Source: a bacterium | Lineage (GTDB): Bacteria > Patescibacteriota > UBA1384 > CAILIB01 | NCBI GenBank assembly: GCA_037131105.1 | Contig: JBAXRQ010000003.1 | Coordinates: 1 to 54,605 of the forward strand | Length of the DNA: 54,605 nt | Direction: 5' to 3' | Shown here: positions 37,337-54,550 of the stretch, piece after piece | Layout of the letters: every line of letters begins with the position of its first letter | How positions within the stretch are numbered: position 1 is the stretch's first letter | Notes under the pieces: generated by a model | Seen by the model: only the letters and a program-made list of their open reading frames with translations | The model's database searches: none | What the model was told of the DNA's origin: nothing | Position numbers and translations under genes: made by a program

Positions 37337-37677
37337 TAGCAGTTCCACGCCCTTAAGGACTTATTGATCCGGCTATCCGGATCACCAGCCGTTTTCTTGC
37401 TCGTTAGTTTACGCTTCATGCCCTTCATACGGGCGCAAAACGAATTCCGGCGAGACCCACCTTCTGGCTGTGGAGCCTTAAGATGCGCTCCGTGGGCCTT
37501 GTTATAAGAAGTCCTACCCTTGGCGTTCAACCCGCCTTTGGGGTTCTGGCCTTCCTTGCGCGTCCACGCGGTGCCGCCCTCTGAGTATAACTTCACGGGA
37601 ACATCAGAATCCTTTCTCTCGATGAGTCTAGGTTTCTTGGAAGGCGAAATAGCCCCCATGCCCCGTGAGGGTCTCAT
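37336..37677 (-). CDS. Small basic conserved phage protein
   Basis: MRPSRGMGAI..., GGLNAKGR, RRNSFCARM, SRINKSLRAWNC. Confidence 0.65.
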   Translation of the reverse strand: MRPSRGMGAISPSKKPRLIERKDSDVPVKLYSEGGTAWTRKEGQNPKGGLNAKGRTSYNKAHGAHLKAPQPEGGSRRNSFCARMKGMKRKLTSKKTAGDPDSRINKSLRAWNC

Positions 37678-37895
37678 TAGACAAACTTCCCGCGAGTCTT
37701 ACCCTTGGATTCACAGCCGCTACCCCGGACGGAGCCACCTGAAGCGAACTTCTTGCGTTCCCGCCACTCCTTACCCGCTCCAGTAGGAGCAGACGGGACA
37801 GTCCCCTTGGGGGGCGTATCCTGATCACTCATAGGATTAGGCTTAGGATCCGGCTTAGCGGGTCCCCCGTCTGCCATCTTCTTACAGCGGGCCAT
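37677..37895 (-). CDS. Small basic xxGG-motif protein
   Basis: MADGG, FASGG and C-terminal RGSGCESKGKTRG; coupled on both sides. Confidence 0.6.
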   Translation of the reverse strand: MARCKKMADGGPAKPDPKPNPMSDQDTPPKGTVPSAPTGAGKEWRERKKFASGGSVRGSGCESKGKTRGKFV

Positions 37896-46720: not shown

Positions 46721-47104
46721 TTATGCGCGGCCAACGCCACGGGGATCTTCGACAACGGCATCTACCGTGTCATCATTAATGATTCTCCACTCGGTACCGT
46801 GGATCTTCAATCGTGTACCGGCATATGCCCGTACAACGATAAAATCTCCCACCTTGCACCAAGGGCCATTGGGGAACCGAGTCTTATCTGTATAAGCATC
46901 CGGACCCATCTTTGCTACAAACAGGACTACAGTCATCTGCTCTTCAACTCGCATAGATTCATCAGACTTGAGGATTTTGCTATCGCCAAAAGTATCCTCA
47001 ATCTTCGGAACCATACACAGCATCCTGAACCCAGTAGGTTCTGGTAGCTGCTTTGCTTTCCTAGTGGCTTCATCCTGCGTCTGATCGACGTTAATATCAC
47101 TCAT
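46721..47104 (-). CDS. groES: GroES-like co-chaperonin
   Basis: PTGFRML, KMGPDAY...WCKVGDFI...YAGT...RIINDDTV (Cpn10 pattern). Confidence 0.85.
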   Translation of the reverse strand: MSDINVDQTQDEATRKAKQLPEPTGFRMLCMVPKIEDTFGDSKILKSDESMRVEEQMTVVLFVAKMGPDAYTDKTRFPNGPWCKVGDFIVVRAYAGTRLKIHGTEWRIINDDTVDAVVEDPRGVGRA

Positions 47105-47291
47105 CTTCTTCCTCTACTTTGGTTGCAAGGTCGATAATAATCATCTTTGCGAAGTCGATACCTTGGATAACCCCGCAAAGTCTGTGGTACTCCGCTTCAG
47201 TAGCCCGCCCAGTAATGACGCTTTCTGCGCTACTAGCTCTCTGTTCATCTAGTCGGGCAAGTAAATATTCAGCGGCGGTAGTGGCTTTCAC
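47097..47291 (-). CDS. Small conserved head-module protein
   Basis: 64 aa, EYHRLCGVIQGI; coupled on both sides. Confidence 0.6.
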   Translation of the reverse strand: MKATTAAEYLLARLDEQRASSAESVITGRATEAEYHRLCGVIQGIDFAKMIIIDLATKVEEEDE

Positions 47292-50032
47292 TCAGCCTCT
47301 CCAGCCGGGGGCGGCTGCTGCGCAGCCTGTTCCGTTTGCGACTCACGGGCCTTAGCCTGTTCATCGAGGTTCGTATGGTGCTTATGCAAGTCAACCTGAT
47401 GTTTCGTATGTTGCTGCGAAATATCAACGCCTGTCTTGATCGAAGCGAGCTTGTGCTGTTGCTCGGCTAGATTATGTGTATCGGCCTTACTAGCGATGTC
47501 GATAGCCTGATCGTGCTGGGTATTCTGCATATCAGCCATAGTCTTGATAATCTCATGCCTATGCTGATCCTTCTGGTGATTCTGCTGATCAGCCTTAGAT
47601 GCACTGTCAACAATGAACTGACGCTTGCGATGCTCAATCTCAGCACCCAACTTCACGCTATCAAGCTGAGAAGTTATCTTCAGTTCTTCTTTCTTTAGCT
47701 CAAGTTCTGCTGACCGGAATGCAGCGTTAGCCTGATCCAGTGCATTCTTACGCTGCTGCTCGGCAGAAGATATCTGCCCCTCCAACTGCAGCGAGGCTTG
47801 CTTGATCTGGATCTCCTGCTGCTTAAGCTGAAGCTCCTGCTGCTGCATCTGTACAATCGGATCCTGCATCTTCTGCTGGGCTTGCTGTGCAGCGGCTTCC
47901 TGCTTATCTTTCTGCAAAAGCTGGCTGGCAGCTTGCGCAATGATCGGAGACAGCTTGGCCTCAAGCTCCGGGGGGATATACCCAGAGTCATTATCATAGT
48001 CAGGCGGGGCAGGAAGCTGCAGAGGCATCAGCTTCTGTACTTCAGCACGGTACTGGAACGCGACATGCTCCATGATATGGGCCATCGCGGAGGACTGAAT
48101 TGCTTGGGCCTGTGGGTTCTGCCCCATGATCTGCATCAGCTTGGGATCCTGAATAGCCCCCATATGCACCGTTAGATGTGCCTGATGATCCTGATACATG
48201 AATGCCCTGACCGGCGTACCATTCAAGATCGCCATGTTCTCAGACACGGGATCAACTGGTTTCATGTCGTCCTTATTGGGAATAATCTTCTCGACGTTCT
48301 TGACGCCCAGTGTTTCGATCATTTGCCTGTGAAGAAACGGCAGATTATAGATCTGAGGTGCTGTCTGAGATAGCTGAAGAACTGCCTGATACTGCACCAC
48401 ACGCTGTGCCATTGTGGAGGCATTGGGGTCAGATACAGGCAGGACATCACAATGATCGTAGTCGCTACGCTTCGCGCCAGCGTCCCCAGTCTCAGGTTCA
48501 TAATCATAGGACTCCGGGGCATTATCCCTGATAATCGCGGCGAGGAGCTTAAACTCCTGCTTCATCGTATAGTGAATGCGGGCCTGAATGGCCCCCATTA
48601 CCTTGAGAGTGCGCTCAAGTACCGCGAGTGTCGTACCCACCGGGGCCTGAGATGACATGTCCGAGACGTTTAGATCACCCGCTCCCGCGAATCTACGACC
48701 GTCCTCGACTACCTGATTCATCAAGGCCATCAAGACCTGACTCGGCTCCTTATAAGGGAGGGGCAGGATGTTGTCCCGCATAGTCCCGCTGGGAAGATCT
48801 ACGTCTCGGAATTCGCCCGGTGCGATAGGAGTGTCATCACCCTTGATGCGAAGGCCTTTAGTCTTGAGACCCCCCGGTAGATTGCTGAGCGTACCCGCAT
48901 CGATAAGCTGCCGCATGAGCGACGTTGCTGATCTAGTGTGGCCGCCAATGAGGTGAATGAGACCAAAATAGTAGAATCCGAAACCCGGTATGTAACCGTA
49001 GTGGACAAAGTGTTGGCGGCGCAGTTTGAGCTTGTCTTCTTCAAGCCAATTGCGTCGGATGGCAAGGACTGTTGAGGTACCTTTTTCAATGGTGACAATG
49101 TACGGGAGTTCGATCCCCGTCGCTTCCCCGTGCTTGTCTTCATCTTCGTACCCCTTCAGGTCAAGATTACAATGAATCTCGTAGATCTGATAACGGTCGT
49201 CCATCGTAGCTGAGAAGCCCTGCTGCTCAGCTTTCTTCTTCTCTACTTCATCCAATACGCGAAGTGGATCACCAAGATCTACATCACTATAGAATCCTGC
49301 TGCCTGAAGCTTGCGCAACTCGTTTTTAGTCTTGCGCATCTTGTGCGTGACACGTTCAGCAGACTCGATATTGGTAGCACCGTAAGGTACGACTACATCT
49401 TCTGCCGAGATAAACGGGGCCGTCTGACGATTCAGGCTAGGGTCAAAGTAAATCTTCTTGAAGGCGTTACCCGCCAATGCTACCGAGATCAATAGACGCT
49501 CATGCTCTGGACGATACTCCTGCATGATCTCCGTCAATTCAAAGTTCATATCTGCTTCGACACGCTTGGCAGCGTCTATCTTGTCCTGCGTTTCCTTACC
49601 AATAATGACTGTACGGACTGGTCCCGCAGCGGGGAATGTCTCCATAATAGTCTCAGATTGGAACTTGACTGCAGCTTCCATCAATAGTGGATGGTATACG
49701 CCACAAGCACCGGGCCAAGGCTCGCTACGCTCTTCATACTTCAAACCAAGAAGCTGAAGCCCCTTGACGTAGGTATCCAGCCAATCCTTACGGGAATTCA
49801 TATCCTCCTGTACGTCAGTCATAAGCTCAGACGCCAACGAGGTCAACTCACCATCGTCAATATCGTCCGCGAGGTTCGCGTCAAAGTCAGGAGTCGAAGG
49901 CTCAATATGAACCTTAAAGCCAGAACCCTCGATATCTACCGACTCCGGATCCTCAATATGAACCTCAATAGGCTCTTCGTTGCCAGCACTGATCCCCTGT
50001 GGGGCAGAATAAATACTCTTATCAATGCTCAT
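47288..50032 (-). CDS. Portal protein (P22-like) with long C-terminal helical extension
   Basis: PWPGACGVYHP, FPAAGPV, GNAFKKIY, YIPGFGFYYFGLIHL, DAGTLSNLPGG, PVSDPN. Confidence 0.9.
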   Translation of the reverse strand: MSIDKSIYSAPQGISAGNEEPIEVHIEDPESVDIEGSGFKVHIEPSTPDFDANLADDIDDGELTSLASELMTDVQEDMNSRKDWLDTYVKGLQLLGLKYEERSEPWPGACGVYHPLLMEAAVKFQSETIMETFPAAGPVRTVIIGKETQDKIDAAKRVEADMNFELTEIMQEYRPEHERLLISVALAGNAFKKIYFDPSLNRQTAPFISAEDVVVPYGATNIESAERVTHKMRKTKNELRKLQAAGFYSDVDLGDPLRVLDEVEKKKAEQQGFSATMDDRYQIYEIHCNLDLKGYEDEDKHGEATGIELPYIVTIEKGTSTVLAIRRNWLEEDKLKLRRQHFVHYGYIPGFGFYYFGLIHLIGGHTRSATSLMRQLIDAGTLSNLPGGLKTKGLRIKGDDTPIAPGEFRDVDLPSGTMRDNILPLPYKEPSQVLMALMNQVVEDGRRFAGAGDLNVSDMSSQAPVGTTLAVLERTLKVMGAIQARIHYTMKQEFKLLAAIIRDNAPESYDYEPETGDAGAKRSDYDHCDVLPVSDPNASTMAQRVVQYQAVLQLSQTAPQIYNLPFLHRQMIETLGVKNVEKIIPNKDDMKPVDPVSENMAILNGTPVRAFMYQDHQAHLTVHMGAIQDPKLMQIMGQNPQAQAIQSSAMAHIMEHVAFQYRAEVQKLMPLQLPAPPDYDNDSGYIPPELEAKLSPIIAQAASQLLQKDKQEAAAQQAQQKMQDPIVQMQQQELQLKQQEIQIKQASLQLEGQISSAEQQRKNALDQANAAFRSAELELKKEELKITSQLDSVKLGAEIEHRKRQFIVDSASKADQQNHQKDQHRHEIIKTMADMQNTQHDQAIDIASKADTHNLAEQQHKLASIKTGVDISQQHTKHQVDLHKHHTNLDEQAKARESQTEQAAQQPPPAGEAE

Positions 50033-50292
50033 CAACGTCTCCTAGTCGCCCGGTTTGTGCGGGGATCGTAAGTCATGTTCTGTTCAGGTATGCTGGTCTT
50101 CTTGGAGGCGCGGTCTTTCGCACGTTCTTCGGCGGTCATGTTATCTCGGGCCTTGCCCGTTGCAGTCAGTACGCCTTCAGTAGTCATCTGCCCACGCTTA
50201 ATTAGAATACTTCTGGCCGTATCCTCAGACCCCACCTGCGCAGCGAGGCGATTGAGTAGCTGATTACGACCCATGAACTTCTGGGTAGTCAT
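50032..50292 (-). CDS. Small basic protein upstream of the portal gene
   Basis: 86 aa, LLNRLAAQVG...LIKRG...MTAEERAKDRA. Confidence 0.65.
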   Translation of the reverse strand: MTTQKFMGRNQLLNRLAAQVGSEDTARSILIKRGQMTTEGVLTATGKARDNMTAEERAKDRASKKTSIPEQNMTYDPRTNRATRRR

Positions 50293-50321
50293 TAGTAATA
50301 CCCCGCCTTATTGGCACTCAT
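50292..50321 (-). other. Coupling mini-ORF MSANKAGYY
   Basis: ATG overlaps the upstream TGA; TAA overlaps the downstream ATG; repeated at 51529-51558. Confidence 0.5.
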
Positions 50322-51529
50322 AGAATTTTCCTGTAATACGTCGTACGCTCGATAGCTCCACCATGCTTATATTCCCTATAATCAGGCTCGGGGTCAGGGA
50401 AATCGAGTTCTGTTCCTCTCGGGGGCAAGGGTCTATCCGGACCCTTGTAGATCCCATACTCGTCTGCGAGTCCGAGTTTCTGCCGGGCATTGGCCTTATG
50501 CGCGTTTTCTATCCAAGGCTGATAACTGGATTCTTGTAATCCGCTAGGCGAATGTCTACTCTTGAGCCCGTTCGTCCACACTATTTCACCATCACGCATG
50601 GATGCGCGATTGCCAGTGAACGGATCCACGTACTCGCCACCGGACTTCAGCTTGCTTTCCACGGTTTCCAGATGTGGAAACTGATCAGCAATCCAAGATT
50701 CTCGTGTGGGAAGCCAGCCTTGTTTCAGATACTCCGCGACATGTTCTTCATCACCGTGGACGTTAGCATTGTATTTTTGGTTGATTTCTTTATGCGTAGG
50801 ATACGGCTCGACACGGCTGTGCAAGTCGTCCAATAGCTCGGCATGTGCCTTGTTGTATGCTGCATCCCTGTGGGTGTGCCAAGACTCCGCCGTCATACCG
50901 TCGTACATATCATTCGCTGTTCTATCAGCTACATGATTGGCGTGGACATTTGCCTGCCCTCGCATGGCATGGTAGTCATGGGGTGACACCACGCGAGTCG
51001 TCGCCGTCTCCGCTACTTCAGGAGCCGCATGCTCCGCAGCCTTGCCGAGTCCGCGCAGCAGCAGCGGTGTCGCGACTGCCGTCCCGACCGCCGCCTGTCC
51101 CGCATTCTTCATGAACTGACGGCGACCGGCCTGCATGGGCACGGACTCAATGACTCGCCGCATGGCAGACGCTCCCAGCGAGCGAGCCAGCGAGCGAGCC
51201 AGCCCTCCGATCCCGGCTGCTTCTCCCACGGGCAGGAAAGCCGTGTCGATAATCCCCCGATCACGGCCCGGTGCGAAGTTGAGCGTACCCTGATAGAACG
51301 GCGACGATCCCTGTGCCCATTGATGGATTTCTTCCGGGGATTGACCAACAAGAAGACTACCAACAGGTAACTGGGTATTGGGTACCAGCGCACTTGCTAC
51401 GCTTTCACCGGCATTATCAAGATAGCGGCGCAGCGTCCCCAGACCCTGCGAGGCGGTACGCAGCATGGGGTTCTCTGGAATGGGGCGTATGGCCCCATTG
51501 TCCGTGTAGGCATATTTATCGTACGGCAT
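50318..51529 (-). CDS. Hypothetical cassette protein with internal Tat-like motif and terminal YKHGG
   Basis: 403 aa; GRRQFMK followed by a hydrophobic stretch; His-rich middle; no family recognised. Confidence 0.7.
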   Translation of the reverse strand: MPYDKYAYTDNGAIRPIPENPMLRTASQGLGTLRRYLDNAGESVASALVPNTQLPVGSLLVGQSPEEIHQWAQGSSPFYQGTLNFAPGRDRGIIDTAFLPVGEAAGIGGLARSLARSLGASAMRRVIESVPMQAGRRQFMKNAGQAAVGTAVATPLLLRGLGKAAEHAAPEVAETATTRVVSPHDYHAMRGQANVHANHVADRTANDMYDGMTAESWHTHRDAAYNKAHAELLDDLHSRVEPYPTHKEINQKYNANVHGDEEHVAEYLKQGWLPTRESWIADQFPHLETVESKLKSGGEYVDPFTGNRASMRDGEIVWTNGLKSRHSPSGLQESSYQPWIENAHKANARQKLGLADEYGIYKGPDRPLPPRGTELDFPDPEPDYREYKHGGAIERTTYYRKIL

Positions 51530-51603
51530 CAGTAGTACCCCGCCTTATTGGCACTCATATAAGAACGATCATAGAATTTTCCTATCGCGAGTACATATGG
51601 CAT
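51529..51603 (-). other. 24-aa coupling mini-ORF MPYVLAIGKFYDRSYMSANKAGYY
   Basis: TGATG overlaps at both ends; 75 nt in frame. Confidence 0.5.
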
Positions 51604-52406
51604 CAGATCACCCGCACCCTGCCGCCCTTGCAGTAGTTCTCTGGAAGTGTGATGGCTTTCTTGGCGGATATATCCCCGCCAACGAAGTTCAGGAAGGGGT
51701 ATTGGTTACGCTGCTCAACCATTGTCTTCGGTATCTTGCCAACGCTAGTTTCTACCGTGTTGCCAGTCAGGTAATCCATCGGATGGGCCATATACCCCTG
51801 AGATTCGCCGCTATTGACGGCGGCGTGGGTGTCGACAGCGTACATCGTCAGGTTAGGATATGCCTCGGGAGAATTGAAGATCCTGCTATCCAAAGCGGAC
51901 ATCACCTTCTTCTCCTTGTCCCCCACTGATATCTTCTCACCCCTATCGCCATATAATCCTTCATAGAGCGATTGCAGGTTATTGGAGTACTGGGCGCGTG
52001 AGTTGGAGTGGATCAAGTCCTGTATCCGATTCGCCATTTCATCATTGATCTTGTCGTGGCGGTACTCATGGGCCATCGTCTGCGGACTGGCCCCGTTACC
52101 GATGCCATAGACCGTTTTCTTCGGATCTCCCAGCGCATTGTAGGATGCAGAGTTGATCTGCCCGAGTCCCATCGCCATTCGCTGGGCGAAATCCTCCCGA
52201 TTTTCAGGGCGCACCCTATGGGCGTTGATCCCCAAGAGATTGTAGGAATGCCCCGGATTCAGGAACACCGCCTTATTGGGGTCCACCAGATCACGGTACG
52301 GCGTCCCGATCTTGGCCCTGATCTTGGCTGCTAGCTCGGGATCTTTCGCATTGAGCGGATCCGCGTAGCTATCCAACTGCTTGCGCTGGCGTTCTCCGGT
52401 ATCCAT
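51603..52406 (-). CDS. Hypothetical cassette protein with HExxH zincin motif and terminal YCKGG
   Basis: 267 aa; TMAHEYRH...E at 52056-52070. Confidence 0.7.
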   Translation of the reverse strand: MDTGERQRKQLDSYADPLNAKDPELAAKIRAKIGTPYRDLVDPNKAVFLNPGHSYNLLGINAHRVRPENREDFAQRMAMGLGQINSASYNALGDPKKTVYGIGNGASPQTMAHEYRHDKINDEMANRIQDLIHSNSRAQYSNNLQSLYEGLYGDRGEKISVGDKEKKVMSALDSRIFNSPEAYPNLTMYAVDTHAAVNSGESQGYMAHPMDYLTGNTVETSVGKIPKTMVEQRNQYPFLNFVGGDISAKKAITLPENYCKGGRVRVI

Positions 52407-53938
52407 TAGTAATATCCTTTCCCATGCGCCCGCGACGACTTAAACCATTTAACGGGATCAGGCTCATCAGTAGGTAGACGGACAAAACCACCCTGACGGA
52501 AGCGAAGAAGAGCAAGAGTCGTACTGTCCACCAAGTCATCATTTTTGCCAGATGGAAAGTCATTGCACTCTTCAATTACCTCACGCGCCCACCGCCTGTC
52601 GGGTGCCCATACAATACCTGCATTAAACATATCAGATACTGCGTTGACACGGCTAATCTTGTCTTGCCCTTTGCCGGGGGTGAACTCCCCCACCGGAATG
52701 CCCATACGCCGCATCTCTTGATAAATAGCAGCACCATTCGATTTCTTTTCTACGATAAAGCTATCCGGCTGCCACTCTTTATACTCATCCAGACAGAGCT
52801 TCTTAAGGTCAGGAAACTCTAGCCGTTCTTTGATCGCATTGAGAAGTATAATATTATAGGCTTTGACTTCTTCATTAAAGAAAACGCCCCACGTTGTAAG
52901 CGCATTATAGTCAGCCCGAGTATTAGCTTCTTGCGCAGCGTCAAGACTCATAATAATGAACTCACACTTGGGGGGATTATCTTCCTCCCAAATCTTCCAC
53001 CACTCACGTTTAAGCAGCGCACCTTCCTCAGAGGTAGGCTGCTGCATGTACTGAGCCATCCAGTACCGGGGGTCCATCCCTGCTTTCTTGGCAAGTAATT
53101 CTTCAAGCGGCCAGAAGTCAGGCCATAGCGGCTTGTCGTTCAGGATGGCAGGGAATTCCACAACTTCCCACGGGTCCGCGTCGTCATTCCTCATCATGTG
53201 GTCGATGATCTGCCCACTGAGATCCAGCTTCGACCATCGAGTCATAACGATAATTATGGCCCCTCCCGGCATCAGTCGCTGGATGGGTCCAGACTGGAAC
53301 CATTCCCACGCTGGCTCAAATACGTCGGACCTTCCCTGCTTGGCTTCCTGCTCCGAGTGGGGGTCATCAATAATAAACAGGTCAGCACCGCGACCAGCCA
53401 AAGCACCACCAACACCAATGGCAAAATACTCACCATTAAAATTAGTACCCCAACGCGACGCAGACTTTGAGTCAGCCTGAAGCTCCACTTGGGGGAAAAT
53501 GTCATGGTAAAGGTCACTTCCTACTAGATTTCGGACCCTACGACCGAAATTTACTGCCAAATCGGCAGTGTGAGAGGCCATTATGACCTTTTTGTGCGGA
53601 TATTTGCCCAAAAACCATGCCGGGGCGAGGTAAGAGATCATTTCTGACTTACCATGACGGGGTGCGATGTTCACGATCACCCGTTTCTTCTTGCCCTCGG
53701 CAATTTCCTCGAAAATTCTAGCTAATTTAGCATGGTGTGGACCCACCATGTAGCCGGGGTAGACATGCTTGATGAAAGAAAGGAAGTTATCCTTGGCCTT
53801 TTCCTTAATTAAGGAGTCGGCATACTGTTTAATTAACTCAGCCGTTCGACGTTTCTGCTTATCAGGCATGGACGGAAGCGCCTGTCGGAGCTTCATGATG
53901 TCTGATGCAGACAACTTCTGGGAGAAGACGCTACTCAT
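52406..53938 (-). CDS. terL: Terminase large subunit
   Basis: Walker A APRHGKSE, Walker B LFIIDDPH, MTRW, nuclease D..ADYNA, EKKSNG, NDDLVDS. Confidence 0.96.
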   Translation of the reverse strand: MSSVFSQKLSASDIMKLRQALPSMPDKQKRRTAELIKQYADSLIKEKAKDNFLSFIKHVYPGYMVGPHHAKLARIFEEIAEGKKKRVIVNIAPRHGKSEMISYLAPAWFLGKYPHKKVIMASHTADLAVNFGRRVRNLVGSDLYHDIFPQVELQADSKSASRWGTNFNGEYFAIGVGGALAGRGADLFIIDDPHSEQEAKQGRSDVFEPAWEWFQSGPIQRLMPGGAIIIVMTRWSKLDLSGQIIDHMMRNDDADPWEVVEFPAILNDKPLWPDFWPLEELLAKKAGMDPRYWMAQYMQQPTSEEGALLKREWWKIWEEDNPPKCEFIIMSLDAAQEANTRADYNALTTWGVFFNEEVKAYNIILLNAIKERLEFPDLKKLCLDEYKEWQPDSFIVEKKSNGAAIYQEMRRMGIPVGEFTPGKGQDKISRVNAVSDMFNAGIVWAPDRRWAREVIEECNDFPSGKNDDLVDSTTLALLRFRQGGFVRLPTDEPDPVKWFKSSRAHGKGYY

Positions 53939-54527
53939 TAGCTTCGCAAGTCTCTATTCCCTCATTATCTGGAATATGATTGACGACATAATTAGCATCT
54001 TCAGGCTCTATAACTGTGTACTCGATATTATTGAGTACAGATAATAGTTCGCGTTCCACTTCCTCGATGGGCTGGATCTTAACCACCATCTCGGAACGCT
54101 TCTTGAAGGCATCTACACCATCGACCTCGCCTAATTTAGCTATGGCTGTGAGCCGAGATTTACTATCTTTGGCATGTTCAACCTCGTAGATGAGTTTGTT
54201 TACAACATACATCTTCAACTCAGACAATTCGTCTACGAGTTGGACATTAGTCTGGGCCACCATCCCAGCCAGATAAGCCATGACCTCATTCGGGTACTTG
54301 GCATACTGCGGACGAACCTGTGGGTTCGACATCATTTCACGGGCTAATACTTCAGCTTCAGCAATGTTCTCATTGCTGGGAATTAGCGCAATTCCCGTGA
54401 TATCAGACAACATTTTAATTGTCCGTGCCCTCATGTCCAATTCTTCTTTTGGAGAGAGGTCAGGCAGGGCGTCGCCCGCGCTAATAGGCAGCGGGATATC
54501 TTCCTCAATGTCAGGAATCAAGTGCAT
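53931..54527 (-). CDS. Putative terminase small subunit
   Basis: Helical ~198-aa ORF overlapping the terL start; first gene of the late region. Confidence 0.55.
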   Translation of the reverse strand: MHLIPDIEEDIPLPISAGDALPDLSPKEELDMRARTIKMLSDITGIALIPSNENIAEAEVLAREMMSNPQVRPQYAKYPNEVMAYLAGMVAQTNVQLVDELSELKMYVVNKLIYEVEHAKDSKSRLTAIAKLGEVDGVDAFKKRSEMVVKIQPIEEVERELLSVLNNIEYTVIEPEDANYVVNHIPDNEGIETCEANE

Positions 54528-54550
54528 GGGGATCCCCAAGTAATACGTAG

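Follow-up and report, generated by a model that had tools for sequence, protein, structure and literature searches.

A probable composite recombination scar marks a cargo-gene hotspot between the terminase and portal genes of an HTVC023P-related podovirus

Phage genomes are said to be mosaics shaped by illegitimate recombination, with additional genes ('morons') lying between conserved ones, a view associated with Hendrix, Juhala and colleagues. Here we examine the interval between terL, the gene of the large terminase subunit, and the portal gene in a stretch of 54,605 nucleotides (contig JBAXRQ010000003.1; the whole stretch is referred to as the window), in which a short element, GGNTAYTACTRATG, encoding Gly-Tyr-Tyr and a stop codon that overlaps the next ATG (GYY-stop-ATG), recurs at gene junctions. 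The capsid targeting sequence (CTS) of phage T4 is N-terminal. The T-even internal proteins, which are diverse and fast-changing, have this CTS in common, and it loads them into the T4 prohead for injection (PMC3012670). The MuF polymorphic toxins of temperate phages are variable proteins encoded in the packaging module and have been proposed to travel with the virion (PMC5576092), and the cargo of encapsulins carries C-terminal targeting peptides (e.g., NTGGDLGIRK, with the consensus DGSLGIGSLKG; PMC7925596). A term search of the paper on the pan-genome of HTVC023P-type phages (PMC9599517) returns no mention of portal genes or of this interval.

Our reading, to which we assign a probability of about 0.8, is that the terL-portal boundary of the HTVC023P-related podovirus clade is a hotspot at which cargo genes are gained, stacked, swapped and deleted, and that the repeated element in the window is the composite scar of one stacking event rather than a gene dedicated to coupling or a border common to all cassettes. 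The gene content of the boundary varies among relatives (whose loci are given below by L-numbers). Among 91 non-redundant terL-portal intervals, 27 have terL directly followed by the portal gene (gap of at most 20 nucleotides), 39 hold 21-300 nucleotides, or about one small gene (the gene called gC below in those examined), and 25 are longer and contain other, diverse cargo genes. The interval is thus not invariant, and the insertion hotspot proposed in a preliminary description, made from the letters of this DNA alone, is borne out. The cargo bodies form at least five families and about ten singletons and are found on either side of gC, with a homologue of the cargo gene gA following gC in one relative. 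As with morons and mosaic joints, these are extra genes between genes that adjoin each other in some relatives, the joints fall at gene boundaries, and content varies in otherwise collinear genomes. Unlike morons, the locus has no promoter or terminator of its own that we could find, its genes form a chain of overlapping stop and start codons, and most inserts have a C-terminal tail in common, referred to here as the GG tail. The joints differ as well in that their breakpoints resolve, nucleotide by nucleotide, into identifiable stubs of the two flanking genes, a legibility seldom seen in phage mosaics. They provide direct evidence for the stacking and loss of cargo at a single hotspot, in phages that are uncultured but related to the abundant HTVC023P type. 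According to the open reading frame (ORF) calls, all genes from terS to portal in the window lie on the minus strand, arranged as follows.

53931-54539, minus strand: terS
52406..53938, minus strand: terL, large terminase subunit (PHROG 38, E=6e-100; Pfam Terminase_6N/6C)
52404..52423, minus strand: native terL 3' end, GGGAAAGGATATTACTAATG, with the GKGYY codons and a Shine-Dalgarno-like AAGGA; its stop overlaps the gA start
51603..52406, minus strand: gA, cargo gene 1, 267 amino acids, member of a family with an invariant HExxH, with a type-2 GG tail
51606-51653, minus strand: type-2 GG tail of gA, ITLPENYCKGGRVRVI, then stop
51529..51603, minus strand: mini-ORF 1, 24 codons, MPYVLAIGKFYDRSYMSANKAGYY, then stop; joins the gA stop to the gB start
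50318..51529, minus strand: gB, cargo gene 2, 403 amino acids, with the direct repeat on both sides
50321-50371, minus strand: type-1 GG tail of gB, YKHGGAIERTTYYRKIL, then stop
50292-50321, minus strand: mini-ORF 2, 9 codons, MSANKAGYY, then stop
50032..50292, minus strand: gC, conserved, 86 amino acids, without a GG tail; frequent resident immediately upstream of the portal gene
47288..50032, minus strand: portal gene (PHROG 1216); the true start is the ATG at 50032 (MSIDK...), matching the portal starts of relatives

The element has three exact matches in the window, at 50290, 51527 and 52404, where 0.23 are expected, and with one mismatch allowed there are four, a number reached in none of 100 shuffles. 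Its recurrence was therefore described correctly, though not its presence at every junction, as it occupies three and the fourth, gC/portal, has no GYY element. The two copies that flank gB belong to a longer direct repeat (50290-50332 versus 51527-51583, 43 and 57 nucleotides), in which 36 nucleotides are 92% and 15 nucleotides 100% identical. These copies have an identical breakpoint and differ by two substitutions and an indel flanked by TATGA direct repeats; the 51.5-kb copy does contain an insert, as had been noted, of 14 rather than 13 nucleotides (offsets 1251 versus 1237). Because the breakpoint is the same and only the two substitutions and the indel separate them, we conclude that both copies descend from one joint. 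An assembly artefact is ruled out, because independent contigs from three ENA samples and one Logan run (source samples ERZ27300165, ERZ27299960, ERZ27300174 and SRR7053571) agree at 100% identity over the junctions that they cover, with the 51.5-kb junction (J2) spanned by two of them and J3 by all four. No variant without gB was seen in the few contigs at hand.

Read piece by piece, the repeat is a chimera of the last codons of a type-1 cargo tail (RKIL-stop, encoded by AGGAAAATTCTATGA), the first 6-12 nucleotides of a portal gene (ATGAGTGCCAAT) and the last ~18 nucleotides of a terL gene (KAGYY-stop, AAGGCGGGGTAYTACTRA). The portal and terL stubs lie at the following positions.

51547..51558, minus strand: putative portal 5' stub, copy 1, ATGAGTGCCAAT (MSAN)
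51529..51546, minus strand: terL 3' stub, copy 1, AAGGCGGGGTACTACTGA (KAGYY-stop); its stop overlaps the gB start
50310..50321, minus strand: putative portal 5' stub, copy 2, ATGAGTGCCAAT; its ATG and the gB stop overlap within ATGA
50292..50309, minus strand: terL 3' stub, copy 2, AAGGCGGGGTATTACTAA; its stop overlaps the gC start, and it contains the 15-mer GGCGGGGTATTACTA

The terL stub can be assigned with good support: across the 1.83 Mb of related loci, the 15-mer GGCGGGGTATTACTA is seen only at the terL 3' end of L030/L031, against 0.003 occurrences expected, and the terL of L203 ends in ...RRKAGYY-stop, followed by an overlapping TAATG. The preliminary description, according to which cargo genes arrive with a copy of a terL 3' end, was right in substance, and terL genes with a similar C-terminus do exist, G[YF]Y being the commonest ending among close relatives. 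What did not hold is that the element is a terL end and nothing else, as a cargo-tail end and a portal stub are fused to it. The portal stub is assigned by position and analogy and would be weak on its own. Its sequence agrees at 11 of 12 nucleotides with ATGAGTGCTAAT (MSANFDK), the beginning of the L169 portal gene, located immediately after a gA homologue of 68% identity.

A scar of the same architecture is found in L081, where the gene order is terL, gB homologue, gC and portal. Its gB/gC junction reads ...AGGAAAATACTATGAGCATCGAGGATACTACTAAATG, of which 11 nucleotides (ATGAGCATCGA) are identical to its own portal start (L081:2229-2239) and 14 nucleotides (GAGGATACTACTAA) to its own terL end (L081:776-789), while the right half, together with gC, is identical to the terL/gC junction of L168. 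Because its two halves equal these three sequences, the L081 junction reads as a chimera in which a 'terL-gB-portal' order, known from L084 and L007, is fused to the 'terL-gC-portal' order of L040 and L168.

We propose that such a scar would form when a 'terL-cargo-portal' genome recombined illegitimately, just inside its portal start, with the extreme terL 3' end of a second genome bearing a different cargo. This would put a second direct copy of the terL end into the locus; the copy in L081 has not yet diverged from the true terL end. Over the short homology between terL-end copies, unequal exchange could then duplicate or delete the cargo unit between them. The window would fit the arrangement 'unit - scar - unit - scar - gC', in which the first unit was later deleted down to stubs of 8 and 27 nucleotides. 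The putative relics at the 51.5-kb junction are given below.

51596..51603, minus strand: putative 5' stub of a deleted gB-like gene, ATGCCATA, resembling the gB start ATGCCGTA; an analogous stub is present in L006
51569..51595, minus strand: putative 3' stub of a deleted type-1 cargo gene, TGTACTCGCGATAGGAAAATTCTATGA, reading (C)TRDRKIL-stop in a frame without a start codon
51559..51568, minus strand: 10-nucleotide segment, TCGTTCTTAT, which together with the next ATGA makes up the 14-nucleotide difference between the repeat copies

The stubs at J2 thus appear to be the 5' (8 nucleotides) and 3' (27 nucleotides) remains of an otherwise deleted gB-like gene, and the stub at 51569-51595 matches the tail ERTT[HR]DRKIL-stop of L001 and L081. 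A similar relic in L006 (L006:2193-3384) shows that cargo is lost by deletion within a gene: downstream of a type-2 cargo gene lies a 71-nucleotide relic of an L007-type gene, consisting of a 46-nucleotide 5' stub and a 30-nucleotide 3' stub joined at a GAAC microhomology. Since the 14-nucleotide difference between the two window copies is flanked by TATGA direct repeats, slippage deletion could interconvert the two forms of the repeat. Mini-ORF 1 itself looks like an accidental read-through of a patchwork of out-of-frame stubs.

Several observations weigh against the scar reading. Scars were found in two lineages only (the window and L081), and the IMG/VR and JGI metagenome searches, in which neither the exact AATAAGGCGGGGTAYTAYTRATG nor degenerate DNA for MSANKAGYY-stop plus ATG had a match, yielded no genome intermediate or parental to the window lineage. 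The 12-mer of the portal stub, with at most one mismatch, is no more frequent in the loci as a whole than expected by chance (8 hits), which leaves position and analogy as its support, and for the first scar codons a reading entirely from terL (KSxxxAGYY, with K changed to M) is possible. A segment inside gA, CCAATAAGGCGGTGT (52265-52279, minus strand), matches the scar sequence CCAATAAGGCGGGGT at 14 of 15 nucleotides; gA homologues differ at 6 of the 15 positions in this patch, and part of the scar may be templated filler or the product of micro-conversion with it. Next to the repeat, which is itself 94-100% identical, stand two gB-type tail ends that diverge strongly from each other (TRD versus TYY); because of this combination, a simple tandem duplication does not fit, and the two duplicated units were probably different alleles. 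Finally, the translational coupling and Shine-Dalgarno function considered next are read from sequence.

All terL-to-portal junctions overlap (TAATG, TGATG or ATGA), with AAGGA, GGGG or AGGA(G) located 6-9 nucleotides upstream, and both mini-ORFs overlap their neighbours just as first described (successive stop/start sequences TAATG, TGATG, TGATG, ATGA, TAATG and TGATG). The GG codons of terL in relatives read GGAGGA about 9 nucleotides before the next ATG, and in 9 out of 9 type-1 tails the arginine codon is AGG (R-K being AGG-AAR), which places AGGA 7 nucleotides before the next ATG. These patterns suggest that, from terS to portal, each gene ends in codons that contain the Shine-Dalgarno-like motif for the gene after it, and that translational coupling through the overlaps and embedded motifs is plausible. 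The stubs probably persist because they are useful: if the ribosome-binding site of a gene is supplied by the final codons of the one before it, any gene with a terL end still in front of it would keep its native initiation context. The mini-ORFs are probably by-products, which may still relay ribosomes.

The same features could be taken to mean that the element is a selected, portable cassette adaptor, in which cargo moves with a terL-end module providing a ribosome-binding site and a coupling mini-ORF, so that the array expands regularly. The stop/start overlaps are unbroken through the scar in both scarred lineages, the terL stub keeps a Shine-Dalgarno-like G-run about 8 nucleotides before the ATG, and the scar stands on both sides of gB, all of which an adaptor would predict; an overlapping stop, however, arises by chance in two of the three possible frames, and the scar peptide differs between the lineages. 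The junctions of relatives make the adaptor unlikely, as 104 of 116 distinct junctions are tight stop/start joints (at most 12 nucleotides) and L081 alone repeats the terL end. Those that are not tight comprise, besides L081, the deletion stubs of L006 and the window, the spacer of L061, frameshifted gC copies and a few gC/portal joints in which the portal start is misplaced, and the cassettes of L028, L029, L121 and L217-L224 join directly by overlap. The element is consequently not a general cassette border, as had been supposed. Nor does the claim survive that the mini-ORF is a dedicated coupling element, since its peptide is not conserved: the L081 scar reads MSIEDTTK in another frame, and the DNA encoding MSANKAGYY is unmatched in IMG/VR and JGI metagenomes.

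Two side observations concern the same interval. In L121 (L121:1959-5798), four interval genes are joined exclusively by scarless overlaps, and two paralogous cargo genes (with a common TPRWKYTPP N-terminus and type-2 tails) flank a third cargo gene and gC. In L061 (L061:3755-4330), the hotspot holds an insert of another class, a 2OG-Fe(II)-oxygenase-like gene that lacks the GG tail; it is placed exactly at the terL stop, and the usual spacer with its Shine-Dalgarno motif is kept downstream.

It is very improbable that the mini-ORFs encode functional micropeptides, for example a mimic of the terL C-terminus (...GYY) that competes for the portal. The terL C-terminus itself invites the idea. YY or FY ends the protein in nearly all relatives (L001-L080 and L225-L229), Pelagibacter phages included, with G[YF]Y the commonest form, and because this ending is nearly universal, it is probably a functional tail, perhaps one that contacts the portal. 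The mini-ORFs do reproduce AGYY-COOH, but the L081 scar lies in a different frame, their coding DNA is without matches elsewhere in the metagenome collections searched, and mini-ORF 1 is the patchwork described above. The window terL ends in ...SSRAHGKGYY-stop and its relatives at ~80% identity in G[YF]Y-stop; the terL of a Planktothrix phage ends in ..EPFY-stop. The least credible reading is that the element arose by convergence, any gene at this place evolving a G-rich Shine-Dalgarno motif, TAYTAY and an overlapping stop/start, for although only 14 nucleotides are common to the element and the window's own terL end, at positions constrained by the GYY codons and the Shine-Dalgarno motif, the GYY codons of the scar belong to no cargo protein, an exact 15-mer is common to the scar and a foreign terL allele, the window copies agree over 36 nucleotides at 92% and 15 nucleotides at 100%, including non-functional stubs, and the identity of the L081 scar to its own terL end and portal start already disfavours this reading.

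A regulatory RNA, terminator or promoter at the junctions was rejected on the results that follow. No terminator-like site was found in the interval and no inverted repeat at the junctions. A scan restricted to sigma-70-type signals found no promoter upstream of gA, gB or gC on the coding strand, its sole minus-strand match lying inside gB. RNA folding at the junctions gave z-scores of -0.30, -0.07 and +2.09, that is, no signal of structure, and the only Rfam match was a sub-threshold snoRNA model. The locus resembles an integron in being an ordered, promoterless cassette array with a repeated border element. Unlike an integron, it has no attC-like hairpin (z of -0.3 and -0.07), its repeat, found in just two lineages, is accounted for by stubs of the genes on either side, and there is no integrase among the window ORFs scanned with PHROG, a scan that did not take in every small ORF.

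In our view, the GG tail matters more than the scar. Related tails of some 16-25 residues, [YF]xxGGx[IV]..., terminate cargo proteins whose bodies are unrelated. Of 26 distinct cargo proteins, 19 match the pattern [YFWH]..GG.{2,20}$, compared with 2 of 466 background ORFs (Fisher 1.7e-26), both background cases looking spurious; by eye, the tail is recognized in 23 of the 26. Further variants occur beyond the four types listed here.

Type 1: YK[RH]GGx[IV]E[RN]TTHDRK[ILM][IL], then stop
Type 2: ...MP.NY..GGRVR.I, then stop
Type 3: GGSVQMP.EYSQG.WKLI, then stop
Type 4: YKKGGMIDKPI.GG.K.I, then stop

It is the tail peptide itself that is conserved, because the tail DNA varies synonymously. A single body family may carry several types; the gA family, for instance, whose tail in the window is of type 2, is found with type 1 in L029 and L217-L224. 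The xxGG tag that had been ascribed to the end of each cassette gene is present in gA and gB, located 7-14 residues before the C-terminus and not at its very end, and gC has no GG motif. A word-index protein search with a type-1 tail profile gave 18 candidates, none of them significant. Cultured relatives also encode a tail-bearing protein between terL and portal.

HTVC023P gp30: tail ...FKKGSMIKARGGGMARMKPTKMY, then stop
HTVC027P gp41: tail ...NASGGLPHILGV, then stop
023Pt_psg01 protein: tail ...HYARGGLATMFTRRR, then stop
DSL-LC04: PcfJ-like protein of 825 amino acids with three N-terminal xxGGxV repeats and a final GG tail ...LLGGVNKYD, then stop

Body families and tail types are shuffled independently, which suggests a modular signal for targeting or docking, and the most economical hypothesis is that the GG tail may be a docking or loading tag. 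A more specific version, in which the [YF]xxGGx[IV]...[KR]-hydrophobic tail is an address tag that docks interchangeable proteins to the portal, the capsid interior or the terminase for loading into the virion and delivery with the DNA, is tentative, and we regard it as doubtful. If it were true, one of the most abundant groups of phages in aquatic habitats would have in this hotspot a polymorphic 'injected effector' locus, its scars recording the shuffling of cassettes. The locus would be a functional analogue of the T4 internal proteins and their CTS with the tag at the C-terminus, and its cargo would include a family of putative HExxH metalloproteins and a protein with an internal Tat-like segment. 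A tail that loads proteins into virions would define a new class of phage-delivered effectors and offer a simple tag for loading foreign proteins. The hypothesis is directly testable because the cultured HTVC023P (gp30) and HTVC027P (gp41) carry the tail.

The T4 CTS, likewise a short conserved peptide common to otherwise unrelated accessory proteins, is the closest functional analogy for the GG tail; unlike the CTS, the tail is C-terminal, its genes lie between terL and portal, and it is known here from sequence. The encapsulin peptides are also short and C-terminal, with glycines, spaced hydrophobic residues and a terminal basic residue, on unrelated cargo of a system with an HK97-fold shell, but only the loose pattern GGx[IV]...[KR]xx-COOH is common to both, and the cargo genes of the hotspot stand beside the portal gene, not the capsid gene. 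The likeness to the MuF locus suggested in the preliminary description extends to variable cargo encoded in the packaging module (terL-portal) and no further: gA, gB and gC have no Pfam or PHROG MuF domain, it is the body that varies and the C-terminal tail that is constant, the opposite of the MuF polarity, there is no evident immunity gene, and the window carries replication genes and no integrase among the ORFs scanned.

Of the two cargo genes of the window, gA belongs to a family with 57 representative clusters in a full HMMER search, HExxH in all but one of the representatives listed, and type-1 or type-2 tails in many. Its HEYRH spans residues 113-117 (52056-52070, minus strand), and in a 45-sequence alignment H113, E114 and H117 are invariant and E123, N126, R127 and D130 nearly so, which makes the gA family putative metalloproteins. 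The family has no relative in Pfam or PDB. Pfam, PHROGs, PADLOC and PDB sequence searches returned nothing for gA, gB or gC, nor did gA and gB peptide patterns in IMG/VR or a gB profile in JGI metagenomes. The word-index protein search found only 2-3 homologues each for gA and gB, and their AlphaFold2 models, with a predicted local distance difference test (pLDDT) score of about 40, were unusable. Residues 135-165 of gB (51035-51127, minus strand), in the middle of the protein, contain GRRQFMKNAG (GRRxF[LM]K) and a hydrophobic stretch, conserved in two homologues, and this internal motif resembles a twin-arginine (Tat) signal. In GC content, gA is like its flanks (about 0.52), and only the Ala/Gly/Arg-rich centre of gB reaches 0.57-0.64. 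Within this GC-rich stretch, a perfect tandem repeat of 12 nucleotides at 51175-51198 (two copies of CCAGCGAGCGAG) encodes LARSLARS.

The nearest cultured relatives of the window by terL are DSL-LC04, 023Pt_psg01 and the Pelagibacter phages HTVC027P and HTVC023P (48-53% amino acid identity), and IMG/VR holds ~600 terL relatives at ~80% identity; a nucleotide search with the interval against 50,697 phage records gave no match. The window also encodes DNA polymerase, exonuclease, helicase, primase and structural proteins. A third ORF with a GG tail lies in the structural module, outside the hotspot (37677-37895, minus strand, 72 amino acids); it begins with MADGGPAKP and ends in ...KKFASGGSVRGSGCESKGKTRGKFV, then stop, resembling the cargo tails of L111 and L138 (..KKGGxVxASSRADGIAxRGKTRGRMVK, then stop). 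A GroES-like co-chaperonin gene is located two genes after portal (46721-47104, minus strand). It prompted us to consider a link between the GG tail and the mobile loop of GroES (GGIVL), which was dropped, the phage GroES-like protein being without such a loop motif. A GroES-like gene is found in the same way in HTVC023P-type phages and in Planktothrix phage Pag-Yong1.

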